The position numbers and the translations under genes are program-made. From Eledone cirrhosa (lineage: Eukaryota), in contig OZ024742.1 of assembly GCA_964016885.1 (NCBI GenBank), positions 315,766,001 through 315,830,000 of the forward strand: a DNA stretch of 64,000 bases. The letters are read 5' to 3'. Below are positions 1,991-28,548 of this stretch, one piece after another. The notes under the pieces were generated by a model. That model searched no databases. It was not told the DNA's origin and saw only the letters and a list, made by a program, of their open reading frames with translations. Within the stretch, counting starts at the first letter, position 1; the number at the start of each line of letters is the position of its first letter.

Positions 1991-2275
1991 GTAAAGAAGT
2001 AAAGGAGAGGGGAGCACCTTCTCCATGTGCGCCCCGGGCAAAGGATTGCACACTTTTTCGGGGGTGTGTGCAACCCCCATCACGTCCCCTCCCTTTTGAG
2101 GTTATTTTCGATTATTTTCATGTTACACCCTTTTTACTCGATTATATGTAAACTCCCCCTTTGTATTTGTCCCTTCTTTTTATGCCTTTATGGTAAATAA
2201 AGAAATCTATCTATCTATCTATCTATCTATCTATCTATCTATCTATCTATCTATCTATCTATCTATCTATCTATC
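1..2275 (+). mobile_element. Tx1-like LINE copy A (3' part) with 3' UTR, AATAAA and (ATCT)n tail/target
   Basis: Stop at 1990, AATAAA at 2196-2201, (ATCT)n at 2205-2275. Confidence 0.9.
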
Positions 2276-3174
2276 ATTCTATAGAGGGTTGGTCCGCAGC
2301 AAGCGCGACGACGCGCTCGGTGAAACTCTAGGCGTAGAGGAAGATGAACTGGCCAGTCTGTTCGGTAGGACCTTCCGCCCGGGACCGATGGACAACTTCC
2401 AAAAGTCCCTGGCCTGGCAGTGCTACCGAGGAGCTCTACCAGTTCGAGACAAGCTCTACAGACATGGGCGCCCGGGCAGGGACCCTGCAAAAAAGATCTG
2501 TCCGAGGTGCGTGCAAGACGAAGAAACCGTCGCGCACGCATTCATACACTGCCCGGGCGTCACTGACCTGTGGGGCTATGTAGAACGACTATTGTCGCGG
2601 GTGGGACCAATCCAGTTGACCACCGAGTCCATTGTCATGATCAAACCGCCACCCTCCTTCAAAAACGAAGGAGATGCGGTTTTCCTTTGTGTGATAGCTA
2701 TGGCGAAAGAGGTTGTATGGTGGACAAGGTTGAAAGGGCTGAGGTCAGACACCTTTCTCTCCGGCCAACAACTGATTCTTTTTTTCAAATACCACTTTGG
2801 AAGAAGAATCAGGATGGAGAGAGAGGTGCTGTACCCCAGCAAGTTTTATGAAAGGTGGGTGAAAGTGGCGAGAATGGCCCGAGTGAATGGGCCTTCTCTC
2901 TATATCAGCCTGTAGGTTGAGGAAAAGGAGGAGGAGAGGAAAGGAGTACAAGCTCTTCGTACTCCTGGAATGAGGGTTGCACATTTTTTTTCGGGGGTAT
3001 GTGTTACCCATATAAACTGTCTCCCTCTATTGGAGAAAATCGACTAACTTTTAAATTCCATCTGTGATAACATTTTACACGTTTTTATTGTATGCAAACT
3101 TCCCCCTTTGTATTTGTCCCCTTCTTTTGTGCCCCTGTGGCTAATAAAGAAATATATCTATCTATCTCTCTATC
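2275..3174 (+). mobile_element. 5'-truncated Tx1-like LINE copy B
   Basis: Begins directly after (ATCT)n with CATTCTATAGAGGG (equivalent to about 1350 in copy A); ORF2 C-terminus stops at 2915; AATAAA 3143-3148; short ATCT tail. Confidence 0.9.
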
Positions 3175-3497
3175 AGACGCGTGTAACTTCGCGGAGAAGT
3201 TTCCGTTAATTTATGTAAGAAAAAAACGTGAGTTTTCAGTTAAATTTTATATTATTGTGTAACTCGAACCCCCATCTGGACCTTCAGGTGGTGGGTCAAC
3301 TCATGTTCGCCCCAACAGGGGCGAAATATTCGTTTGGAAAACTTTTTTTCCATCGAATTTTGGAAATAAAATATTATGAGTTTGATTACGTTATGAACGC
3401 TGCGTTCAACGATAATGGTGGTGGAGAGTCGGTAAGACTACAAAGCTCGCAGTCAACATCGTCTTCTTTCCTTTCCTTCTTAATAGATACTATTGAG

Positions 3498-24307: not shown

Positions 24308-27300
24308 ATGGCCGTATTAAGAGTAGGATGTTTAAATGTTCGAGGCCTGGGATCGTCCTGGAAGCAGGGTCACCTGCTCAACGACCTCAGGTCTATAGAA
24401 ATGGATGGAATTGCAGTTAGCGAGACCAGGATTTCCGACACGCGCGCACTAGCCCACATTTTCGACGACTATCAGATCTTTGCAACTGTTAGCCGGCCGG
24501 GAATGGGAGGCGGGTGGCAGTGCTGTTTAGGAAAGGCCTGGATCTCGAGGTAAGGTCGATCTTCCGGGACCCGGACGGGAAGTTGGTGGTCCTGGACGTG
24601 AACAATAATGAAGGTGGTGCCTTTAGACTGGTGGCCGTCTATGCTCCTACTGGGACAGGACGGCCGGACTTCTTTAGACGCCTGGAAGCCTTTCTGGGTA
24701 CGTCTCGCCCTTTACTGTTAGCGGGGGACTGGAACGGCATCTTAGACGCACGCTGGGACTGTGTGGGAGTATCCGATAGGAGCGGGGTGTGCAAAAGCCT
24801 CAAGGACCTGATCAGCCAGTTTCAACTGTCTGACAGGTACCGACTAGATTTCCCTAATGCGCCAGTGTGGGCCTGGGCTAACCGCATAGGGTCATCTAGA
24901 TCGTATATAGACAGGATATTCATTAGGAAAATAGACAGAAATAGTGTAAGGTGTCCACGTTTTGAAACGGTCGCCTATTCAGATCACAAGTTTGTTATCT
25001 GTATGGTCGACCTAGATAAGATGCGTAGGTTTAGGACCTGGTTACTGGAAGCTAAACATGTCATTTCCGGCACGTAAGGCTTACAGGGACCAGGTCAACA
25101 ATTTAGTTAAGAAAAAGTTGACAGGGGGAGTCGTCAACAATAGATGGTGGGGGGCTCTCAAAAGAGAGATTAGAGTAATGTCGATAGAGTTTAGCAAAGA
25201 AGTAGCATTAGAGAAAAATAGAAAGGAGGGGGAGTTGGTAGATAAGTTAGACGAGGCTAATGGTAGTGGCATTGCAACTGATGTGCTAGCGGCGAGAATG
25301 GCATTAGACCATTTCTTCAATGCGAAACACGAAGGTTACATTGTCAGAGCTAAGGCGCGTACTCTGAGAAACGAGGGAACCAAAGTTGTTCGATGGGCCT
25401 GCGTGGCAGAGGCGCAGCTTGGAAATAAAACCACGATTCGTCTTTGACGGACCGAGACGGGCACGAGCTGAGCGATTCCAAGAGGATGTGTGAGGCCTTT
25501 CGCCAACATTTTGCTCGGTTGTTCGGGGGAAGTGGCGGGTCAGAGATGGTGGCGGACTTCAGTCCCTACCTCGATGGCTTGCCGCAACTCTCGACGGCTG
25601 ACGCTGGGCGCTGCGAAAGGCCAATTACTTCAGCCGAGATTCAGGATGCCCTTGTCGGCTGCATGAGGCGCAAGTCACCCGGTTTGGATGGTCTGCCCTA
25701 CGAGCCTTACGTAAATATGCCAGACTTGTTCTCCAATCTCCTCGAAGCCCTCTACTGCAACTGCCAGCAAAACGGGAGTATTCCCAGTTCTGTGAGCCGG
25801 GGCGTAGTGACGCTGATAAGGAAAGACGAGAACAAGAGGGACAAATTAGACAATTTCAGGCCCATAACTCTGCTCAACACAGAGTTTAAGATTTTGGCCA
25901 GGGTGTTAGCGAAGAGGTTGGCGCTTGTCGTCGGGGATTTGGTTGGGGAGGCGCAAACTTGCGCAATCCCAACCAGGTCCATACACGACAACCTCCACCT
26001 AATGCGATACATCATAGAGAGGGTAAGGTGTAAACCTGGCTTCGGTGGGGCTCTGATCAATTTAGATCAATCGAAAGCATTCGATAGGGTCGACCATCGG
26101 TACCTGGAGGCTGTCCTCAAGGCGGCTGGCTTCGGCCCCGTCTTCAGAAGCTTGATCGCTGCAATGCACAGCGGCACCTGCTCGATGGTCAAAATTAATG
26201 GCCACCTCTCGGAACCGTTTCAGGTCTCCCGATCGGTCCGTCAAGGGTGCCCTCTCTCCTCCCTTCTGTACGTATTGACTCTCGAGCCTTTACTGCGGAA
26301 GCTGGAGCTGTTGCAGGGCATCCCGCTCGAACCGGGACGCGGAAAGGCTGTGTCAGCTTATGCGGACGACATCACCGTGATGGTGTCGGACACCTCAGAA
26401 ATCGAGGTGGTCGGCAACTTATTGGAGGAATATGAAAGGTTGACGGGAGCAAAACTTAACCCGGAAAAGTCAGTAGGCTTGCAACTCGGCACCTGGAGAG
26501 GCAAGTCCATGCCGTCCAACAGCGTCGTTAGGCGCTGGACGGACGGACCGGTAAAGTTGCTAGGAGTTTGGTTCGGGCCAGACCTCCAGGTGGATAAGAA
26601 TTGGGACGAGGTGACGGGCTGGGTAGTCAGTCTCACCCAGAAATGGGCTGGGATGAAGCTATCACTGAAAGGTCGGGCGGAGGTGGCGAACGCGTACATC
26701 GCGTCCGTCATCTACTACCGTCTGACTGTCGTCCCTTGCCCCCGTTCGCGCCTCGCCATCTTGGAGCGGCTCCTCTTCAAATTCTTGTGGAGGGGTCAGG
26801 TTCCGTTGGTGAGGCGGTCCATCTGCTGCCAGCACCCTCTACGTGGAGGGCTGGGCATGCCGTGTCTAATGATGCGCAGGCACGCGCTGAGGCTGCGGCA
26901 TCTCCAGATATTCTGCCTAAACGGTGAACAGGTGTGGTCACCGTTTGTCAGACGGGCCTTTCCGCAGCTCGTTTCTTTGACTGAGTTGCAGTCCTGGGTC
27001 AAGAAGAGACCGAGACTGGGTGACTGGCATCTGGAATGTTGCCAGGCACTCACTGCCCTCTACCAGGCGGGAAATGCGGTCAGTGGAACTTCCACTCTCG
27101 AGTTCTATAGAGGATTAGTGGTGGGCAAGTGCGACGACGCACTCGGAGAGGCTCTGGGAGTGAACGAAGTCGAACTAACCAGTCTGTACCGGAGGACTTT
27201 CGAGCCGGGTACGATGGATAATTTCCCAAAATCCCTCGCTTGGCAGTGCTACCGGGGGGCACTGCCGGTTCGAGATAAACTCTACAGGCACGGAAGTGCT

Positions 27301-27729
27301 GTCAGACGGACCTGCCCGAGATGCGTGCAGAGCGACGAAACCGTTCTGCGCGCACTCGTCCAGTGTCCGTGCATTACTGACTTGTGGAGTTATGTTGAAC
27401 AGCTGTTGTCGCGTGTAGAACGGATCCGGCTATCGGCCGAGTCCATAGTGAAGATCGACCCGCCGCCTTCTTTTGGCCAGGAAGGGCAGGCAATTTTCCT
27501 CTGTCTGGTGGCAGTAGCGAAAGAGGTTGTATGGTGGACGAGGTTGAAAGGACTGAAGACAGATACTTTTCTCTTCGGCCAATCCCTCATCAACTTTTTC
27601 AAGTTTCACTTGGAAAGGAAGGTGAGGGTGGAGAGAGAAGTGCTGCCCCCCAGTACATTTGCTGAAAGGTGGATGAATGTGGCGAGAATGGCCCGTGTGA
27701 GTGGGCCTACTCTGGTCATGCGGCTGTAG
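24308..27729 (+). pseudogene. Tx1 ORF2 (APE + RT + zinc-binding region) with about three frameshifts
   Basis: Consecutive ORFs 24308, 24514, 25058 and 25444-27729 carry NVRGL, GDWN, SDH, KSPGLDGL, QGCPLS, YADD. Confidence 0.92.
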
Positions 27730-28548
27730 GTAGGTAAATTTGAAGAGGAGAGGGGTGCCCTTCCAGGGTGCTCTCGAAGCGTCGGGTCGTTCAGGACTGG
27801 TGGGGTACCTGAGCGAACCCTAGGTGGTCATCCCCCCTATTGGGGAATTTTTTCTTGTAATTTTATTGTTACTTTATTGTTTCTTTGTTATTGTTACTTT
27901 GTTTATTCATATTGTTTATTCGATTTTTCTGTAAAACCCCACTGTCCCAGTCTTTTGTATTGTCCCCTATATGTCGGCCCTTGTGGCCAATAAATGAAAT
28001 CATTATTATTATTATTATTATTATTATTATTATTATTATTATTATTATATGTTTTGTTCCCGTATAAATTTGCACTATATATATATATATATATATATAT
28101 ATACACACTAGGTATGTACGGCATGTACGTATGACTCCATGGCAATCCCCTCTCATTCACCCTTTCTAAATATACACAAATTTGTGCGCGCACAACCCCA
28201 ATATAACAATATAACACTAGAACAACTCACTATCACCTGTTTCATAGTCGGGTGGTAAGTGACAAAACCACCCCTATCCAGTTAGTTGGTTATGAAGGCG
28301 CTTTGACATCCAACAGTATACACAATAAAACTTGTCAAAGAGTGGAAGAGCTTCTTACTGAAAAGCCAATAGTGAGCCACACCTGGAAAGAAAACAGGCG
28401 CCGCCAAACTATTGAACACCTACATTGCCAGGTACATACTTCTCCCTAAGAATATGGGTTTTAGAAGTACACACACACACTGGCACACATACGCATGCGT
28501 ATCACTTTATTCAATAATAATAATAATAATAATAATAATAATAATAAT

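Follow-up and report, generated by a model that had tools for sequence, protein, structure and literature searches.

Structured 3' ends have been described in several groups of retrotransposons that lack long terminal repeats (non-LTR). R2 elements of the A-clade, found in birds and turtles, carry a pseudoknot-hinge-stem that, in the passages cited, is divergent in sequence, needed for insertion and rescued by compensatory mutation (PMC11601368; PMC12222951). In L2 elements, a stem-loop at the tip of the tail is reported in the section cited to be bound by the protein of the second open reading frame (ORF2p) (PMC4176376), and human L1 ORF2p is described as recognising poly(A) (PMC12503042). 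One octopus annotation lists L1-Tx1 families as having been active recently, and the part cited leaves RNA structure unmentioned (PMC13282606). Here, we analyze the untranslated 3' regions (UTRs) of a Tx1-like long interspersed element (LINE) of Eledone cirrhosa, starting from five copies in a stretch of 64,000 nucleotides (GCA_964016885.1, contig OZ024742.1, positions 315,766,001 to 315,830,000, forward strand), from now on referred to as the window. While structured LINE tails and the R2 pseudoknot are already known, comparison of subfamilies indicates that the Tx1-like tail is a real, covariation-supported RNA module, whose function we infer. No such structure was found for Tx1 or cephalopod LINEs in the open literature searched, a search that lay outside Repbase and subscription journals and was weak for wording on 3' ends.

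The Tx1-like tail resembles the A-clade R2 tail, as the latter is given in the passages cited above: in both, divergent sequences have a pseudoknot in common, a probable one in the Tx1-like family, which is followed by a single-stranded linker and by a stem at the 3' terminus of a target-preferring non-LTR element. However, R2 has one open reading frame (ORF), a restriction-like endonuclease and a compact module of 65-67 nt, whereas the Tx1-like family has two ORFs, an apurinic/apyrimidinic (APE) endonuclease and a putative knot that spans 95-145 nt with a nested hairpin and a U-rich spacer, as well as two more hairpins and an end formed by AATAAA and a microsatellite. The family does not carry the R2 protein with its ribosomal DNA target or the 65-67 nt module and is no member of the A-clade R2 group; no kinship in sequence is implied, though its tail may work in a similar way. 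ZfL2-1 and ZfL2-2 of zebrafish and UnaL2 of eel share a short stem-loop at the 3' UTR tip (H5 in the present family) with a conserved but compensated stem and a loop that varies between subfamilies; they belong to the L2 clade, however, and the source section describes one stem-loop with demonstrated binding and mobility, compared with four hairpins and a probable knot predicted here from sequence (PMC4176376). The monocot LINE1-1_ZM group is, like the present family, an L1-superfamily lineage with a conserved and compensated 3' hairpin, read in the passage cited as stringent recognition, but there one hairpin is described and the tail is common to partner short interspersed elements (SINEs), none of which was seen among 67 tail ends here (PMC3472496). 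Kibi and Koshi combine a Tx1-like ORF2 with insertion into simple repeats, (TC)n and (TTC)n respectively, whereas the targets here are (ATCT)n and probably (ATT)n, and the passage on Kibi and Koshi mentions no RNA structure (PMC4494074).

All five window UTRs lie on the plus strand, 3' of the stop codon of an ORF2 with reverse transcriptase (RT) and zf-RVT domains, and end in AATAAA followed by a microsatellite, (ATCT)n in copies A, B and D and (ATT)n in copies E and F (Table 1). The element has the features of the L1 superfamily, namely an ORF1 and an ORF2 with APE endonuclease, RT and C-terminal zinc-binding domain (Pfam Exo_endo_phos, RVT_1 and zf-RVT). The best match of ORF2 in the PDB is human L1 ORF2p (E 4e-50; R2, E 1e-20). 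The "transposon TX1 uncharacterized 149 kDa protein" matches residues 400-800 with 41% identity and 246 bits, and human L1 ORF2p, in a different database, scores 174 bits across about 850 residues. Among named proteins, the closest is one of Argonauta hians (67%). This similarity and the target behaviour described below support the "Tx1" label of the sequence-only reading, a note made on the window from its letters, to the extent of a Tx1-like assignment. The family is abundant: a tail pattern gave 45,149 matches in the 3.0 Gb genome (control 18), equal to at least 45,149 tail copies, and an ORF2-end pattern gave 24,063 (control 1). At least 150 copies of subfamily A share an identical ORF2 C-terminal peptide (150 of 150 scored matches), many of them in full-length open frames. 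A genome search with the C-terminus of a distant relative gave nothing above 41% identity, and the top matches fetched belonged to the same Tx1-like family.

For covariation analysis, 216 distinct UTRs were clustered and targeted sets added, and 18 subfamilies of 2 to 36 copies each were kept, including subfamily H with only 2 copies. One-copy clusters, cluster K (2 copies, expanded G/C runs) and F3 and F4 (close to F2, or 2 copies) were dropped before counting. As copies decay neutrally after insertion, only differences between subfamilies were counted, using subfamily majorities. Single old copies were left out because an apparent compensation in one of them, L069 (GTGAGG/CCTCAC), is no lineage: the double change has 9 genome matches (2 or 3 real UTRs by eye) compared with 26 for the uncompensated form. 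The UTR played no part in the tree, which was built from the final 330 nt of ORF2 and divides the subfamilies, with 100% support, into an ATCT-tail group (A, I, C, H, G, G2, B, B2, D, D2) and an ATT-tail group (F, F1, F2, J, E3, E2, E4, E). ORF2 ends are 65-97% identical between subfamilies, and the UTRs of the two groups are about 40-50% identical. In the null model for stems and pseudoknot, the 3' arm was re-evolved at random along this tree.

The UTRs share one order of parts, consisting of hairpins H1, H2 and H3, a U-rich spacer, a strand complementary to the H2 loop, a TGTA..TGTCC box, hairpin H5 and, directly after it, AATAAA. The sequence-only reading had given this order as far as the U-rich tracts, which stands, and had missed the terminal hairpin H5. 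Its proposal of a selected cis-acting RNA structure is supported by the larger alignment of 18 subfamilies, where H1 and H2 covary strongly and H5 modestly. With hand-placed arms, 113 of 118 H1 cells and 182 of 192 H2 cells (null 125.9) are canonical, levels reached in 0 of 4000 simulations each. In H5, 67 of 72 cells are canonical (45 of 4000), its outer pair being U-A, G-C or A-U and its second pair G-C, G-U or A-U, and it is thus a terminal stem-loop with compensatory changes of the kind found in stringent-type tails. H3 is conserved with one change (81 of 90 cells, 742 of 4000). RNAalifold, run on an unfitted alignment of 15 majorities, also returned H1, the outer part of H2, H3 and H5. 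Among 18 real copies aligned with MAFFT, 87.1% of cells are paired compared with 34-54% for slid partners, and 14 of 30 pairs show a double-sided change; the shuffle control of this analysis ignores relatedness. G-U pairs outnumber A-C mismatches on the sense strand (39 to 15, P = 0.0015), which points to the sense strand as the one that folds; together with the double-sided changes that keep pairing between subfamilies, this excess supports selection on the RNA. Run on the window, a covariance model of the family matches the five UTRs strongly (E 1e-20 to 6e-34) and nothing else of comparable strength, the following match having E 0.88; these matches arise partly by construction, since the model was built from 18 relatives. 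Among 46 metagenome loci of distant relatives (best-segment identity 23-54%), the model had no match, a result of little weight because only about 7 of these loci reach a 3' end. Subfamily A also occurs, nearly unaltered, in contigs from two other organisms, which contributed no further covariation.

Two results speak against the fold as drawn: folds of individual sequences have no greater stability than those of shuffles (z -1.2, -0.6 and -0.1), and subfamilies E and E2 favour another nested fold in silico, with an H2 outer pair probability of at most 0.01. On the comparative evidence, the hairpins are nevertheless almost certainly real. All three covarying stems quoted from the window earlier are found there. 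In copy A, position 2031 in H1 is a private change, where all four runs compared have another letter, and in copy E private changes affect the outer stem of H2 (21865-21867). A TTTAC..GTAAA stem, reported earlier for most copies, is not supported: it is exact in only 2 of the 5 window copies (A and D) and shows no double-sided change across 15 subfamilies, in 4 of which it is absent (C, D2) or broken (E, E2). In E and E2, the purine leader could instead form a helix with the H2 loop on its 3' side; judged by eye, this alternative is weakened in E3. In subfamily C (e.g., L113:7238-7500), H3 is duplicated and a new long-range GGCG..CGCC stem lies just before the pseudoknot partner, which could be a replacement for the TTTAC/GTAAA stem.

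The loop of H2 and its downstream partner strand probably form a pseudoknot; this part of the earlier reading is upheld with moderate statistics and less firmly than the hairpins. All ten loop and partner motifs are exactly where they had been placed in the window, and the spacing, put at about 95-135 nt, measures 95, 109, 102, 106 and 136 nt in copies A, B, D, E and F. The partner occupies one homologous place, 3' of an AAA in the spacer and 5' of the TGTA..TGTCC box. The core has 3 or 4 G:C pairs, and its flanks change on both sides. In the ATCT group, subfamilies A, I, C, H, G and B have G5/C5, D and D2 have CGGGG/CCCCG, and B2 and G2 have only G4/C4; in the ATT group the pairings are GTGGGG/CCCCAC (F group, J), TGTGGG/CCCACA (E2), GTGGGC/GCCCAT (E4), AATGGGC/GCCCATT (E) and GTGTGG/CCACAT (E3). 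The strongest evidence comes from the E group, since its members can be aligned with certainty and take their order from the tree: from E3 to E2 and then E4 and E, one position passes from G-C (E2) through G-U (E4) to A-U (E), a second from U-A through U-U to A-U and a third from C-A to C-G. E2 was sampled as 30 copies and the E4 pattern has 88 genome matches (control 0). In most subfamilies, the loop strand and the 3' arm of H2 lie a single unpaired base apart, as in classical H-type knots. Watson-Crick pairs fill 41 of 75 flank cells (null 23.5; 15 of 5000; 15 subfamilies, E3 excluded), and the flanks show 7 extra pair types (null 3.0; 34 of 4000), a count over 18 subfamilies inflated by E3, which pairs one register off. 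The earlier claim that loop and partner change in concert is borderline on the majority sequences of the five window subfamilies, where 6 of 120 permutations do as well as the true pairing, and is better supported with 8 types (84 of 40,320), in a test that is not tree-aware.

A sceptical account holds that only the hairpins matter, H5 above all, and that the long-range pairing is a by-product of G/C runs or an alternative fold without function. The core is indeed a low-complexity match of G3-5 with C3-6, the knot of A-like subfamilies amounts to a bare run of G5/C5, and the GTGAGG/CCTCAC compensation failed genome-wide. Several further results count against the knot. Over 18 subfamilies, 52 of 90 flank cells are canonical (null 40.5; 242 of 4000), all eight pseudoknot columns together reach 140 of 4000 and compensated columns number 4 (null 1.96; 259 of 3000). 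Depending on the statistic, support lies between 0.003 and 0.06. The register was fixed manually from the G:C core, and the flank letters do not share columns in the MAFFT alignment. Several lineages break flank pairs: B2 and G2 keep only their 4 G-C pairs, E2 carries a C-A mismatch, and a loop change that breaks one pair is common to 7 of 16 sampled E-type copies. By duplex energy, the partner takes first rank in only 10 of the 18 majority sequences; in the other 8, C-rich sites found mostly within H1, H3 and H5 score better. However, when four downstream C-rich sites are compared, the Watson-Crick helix formed with the H2 loop is longest for the partner in 13 of 15 subfamilies and matched in length by another site in the other 2, with a mean length of 5.5 bp compared with 3.3-3.6 bp for the decoys. 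It also keeps its homologous position across the divergent UTRs of the two groups, and the wobble path in the E clade, as well as a column that is G-C, C-G or U-A in different clades, counts against a by-product. We regard a role for the hairpins alone as improbable. The TGTCC box was also considered as a partner, either for the G strand of H3 or for the H2 loop; such helices are shorter and are lost in A (partly by eye).

We lean towards the fold acting mainly as a recognition signal, through which ORF2p would pick out its own RNA and place the 3' end for target-primed reverse transcription. The sense RNA would fold into four covarying or conserved hairpins and a probable H-type pseudoknot, in which the H2 loop pairs with a strand 44-74 nt before the end, loops out H3 and the spacer and brings H2 beside H5. 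ORF2p would bind this compact module. AUCU or AUU repeats immediately beyond AAUAAA would pair with a nicked microsatellite and serve as the starting point of priming, such that any poly(A) would be left uncopied. Template recognition and positioning are favoured here because the tails of R2, L2 and plant L1 elements offer precedents. The 299 distinct tail ends sampled comprise 110 (ATT)n, 101 (ATCT)n, 10 with a satellite-like flank (subfamily G2), 77 others and 1 A-run; with an A-run of at least 10 in only 1 of 299, insertions appear without poly(A). This lack tilts the balance towards template recognition over stability, and since poly(A) is not copied, RT would start at or just past AAUAAA. 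Of 50 ATCT-clade copies, 28 have at least two ATCT units no more than 26 nt from the 5' boundary, compared with 0 of 87 in the ATT clade (Fisher P 8e-16), so that the ATCT clade targets (ATCT)n and, from these boundaries, shows the target-sequence preference characteristic of the Tx1 clade. The ATT clade probably targets (ATT)n: (ATT)3 is found at only 3 of 87 boundaries, many of which are internal breaks, and full-length ATT-group copies sit after ATT tails in the window, L368 and L370. This pattern fits the target preference of Tx1 families as described in the source section (PMC4494074). No partner SINE with the same tail, and no fixed non-LINE head, was seen among a small sample of 67 of the 45,149 tail ends (the first 30 listed and 37 picked for lacking the ORF2-end motif), 48 of which have the whole UTR, 18 are truncated within it and 1 is short and unaligned.

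The principal competing view, which we consider rather unlikely, assigns the fold to 3'-end formation or RNA stability, either presenting UGUA and AAUAAA to the cleavage and polyadenylation machinery or shielding the end from decay. AATAAA follows H5 in 18 of 18 subfamilies, and in each of the 18 one or more TGTA sites stand in the 90 nt upstream of it; frequently there is a pair, at about 34 and 50-59 nt, with the 3' strand of the pseudoknot between the two sites in most subfamilies. Cleavage factor I (CFI) binds UGUA upstream of AAUAAA, and a CFI dimer can bind two such sites; the same passage describes poly(A) signals as read by protein-RNA contacts and not by base pairing (PMC4421977). As poly(A) signals need no pairing, processing fails to explain the covarying H1, H2 and knot 150-200 nt upstream. 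Proper termination would be needed in tandem copies, and copies are frequently arranged head-to-tail. On the side of stability, the ENE of Evade is a described RNA structure that stabilises a retrotransposon transcript (PMC12501189). Consensus folding of the Tx1-like tails returned no ENE-like U-rich internal loop, although the spacer aligns poorly and triples are not predicted by such folding, and poly(A) is not seen in insertions. In an ENE, helices enclose a U-rich internal loop, and the element binds the poly(A) tail. Both functions may operate together, the box and AATAAA serving processing and the folds serving ORF2p.

It has also to be considered that the fold might act in translation or ribonucleoprotein (RNP) assembly, handing new ORF2p to its own mRNA or localising the RNP. 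H1 begins about 20-35 nt after the ORF2 stop codon in all subfamilies, behind a purine-rich leader, a constancy that would suit such a role; the terminal hairpin and the fixed microsatellite junction are left unexplained by it, and we judge it very improbable. A hammerhead or hepatitis delta virus (HDV)-like ribozyme was dismissed by eye against the core motifs: a CUGANGA-like stretch between H1 and H2 is unconserved and no GAAA follows H2. Rfam gave no match in the window; in 12 loci it gave 27 hits at E of 1 or less, every one well short of the gathering score and most of them from microRNA models lying on simple repeats.

Returning to recognition by ORF2p, a more far-reaching and tentative suggestion, which we rate as somewhat doubtful, is that the family possesses a long-range pseudoknot module of its own, convergent with that of A-clade R2, which would provide R2-like template selection and microsatellite-primed, poly(A)-independent insertion in an L1-superfamily element. 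Template choice in the L1 superfamily, by structure or by poly(A), is known mainly from the poly(A)-reading human L1, and for structured recognition the best-known cases are R2 and L2. A tail with four hairpins and a probable pseudoknot, kept in 18 subfamilies of an APE-type element, would close this gap. If true, the many identical, intact young copies would be a ready system for studying how L1-type ORF2p moved from stringent to relaxed recognition, with the natural compensatory variants supplying a mutant series and swaps of cognate and non-cognate tails.

Table 1. Tx1-like copies in the window with the parts of their 3' ends (window positions; PK, strands of the probable pseudoknot; box, TGTA..TGTCC box; EN, endonuclease).
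Feature	Position	Strand	Details
Copy A, 3' part of ORF2 (RT, zf-RVT)	2..1990	+	element extends left of window; intact, ORF1 679 aa, ORF2 1145 aa
Copy A, 3' UTR	1991..2204	+	H1 2009-2035; H2 2043-2076; H3 2088-2101; PK 2060-2064 / 2155-2159; box 2162-2172; H5 2183-2195; AATAAA 2196
Copy A, (ATCT)n tail	2205..2275	+	5'-truncated copy B starts at tail end
Copy B, 5'-truncated ORF2 end	2275..2915	+	
Copy B, 3' UTR	2916..3151	+	H1 2943-2965; H2 2974-3009; H3 3022-3035; PK 2993-2997 / 3102-3106; box 3109-3119; H5 3130-3142; AATAAA 3143
Copy D, ORF2 end	8088..9263	+	joined to longer element (about 3175-8090) without own UTR
Copy D, 3' UTR	9264..9497	+	H1 9289-9315; H2 9323-9355; H3 9369-9382; PK 9338-9342 / 9440-9444; box 9454-9463; H5 9476-9488; AATAAA 9489; (ATCT)n after
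Copy E, 5'-truncated ORF2 end	20894..21820	+	(ATT)n before
Copy E, 3' UTR	21821..22066	+	H1 21843-21856; H2 about 21865-21907 (outer stem damaged); H3 21918-21931; PK 21883-21889 / 21989-21995; box 22006-22015; H5 22045-22057; AATAAA 22058
Copy E, (ATT)n tail	22069..22108	+	full-length copy F starts directly after
Copy F, full length, ORF1 region and ORF2 (EN, RT, zf-RVT)	22110..27729	+	frameshifted
Copy F, 3' UTR	27730..27997	+	H1 27752-27774; H2 27784-27820; H3 27832-27845; PK 27800-27806 / 27936-27942; box 27956-27965; H5 27976-27988; AATAAA 27989
Copy F, (ATT)n tail	28002..28048	+	

Several further arrangements of tails were encountered. Young full-length copies stand head-to-tail with a period of about 5.8 kb at G000:C1:423385470-423409170 and C1:168101697-168114840, each starting right after the microsatellite tail of the preceding copy. 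In G2 copies (L372, L378, L395-L400, L406, L412, L419, L420; G000:C1, e.g., 4228980-4259387), which lie about 5.9 kb apart, a shared satellite-like repeat replaces the microsatellite at the end, reflecting either a target switch or amplification within a larger unit. Two copies (L367:about 590-830 and L413) are cut almost exactly at the ORF2 stop, with the UTR alone inserted after (ATCT)n. A SINE-like repeat with a tRNA-like head and an (ATT)n end is present at L405, L410, L418, L431 and L367:1-470; LINE pieces of about 23, 35, 436 and 510 nt lie directly 3' of its tail, as though that tail were the target. The central part of this repeat may resemble the Nin domain.

Outside the five UTRs, the window contains a long element without its own UTR (3175-8608) that runs into copy D. 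Its segment 7574-8090 and the segment 8088-8608 are direct repeats, 86% identical and from two subfamilies, which suggests a template switch or nested insertion. Long near-perfect palindromes at 10658-10921, 13433-13713 and 16360-16487 are 92-100% self-complementary and possibly similar to miniature inverted-repeat transposable elements (MITEs). Further downstream, a 67-bp tandem repeat occupies 29098-30253 in 17 copies with 97% matches.

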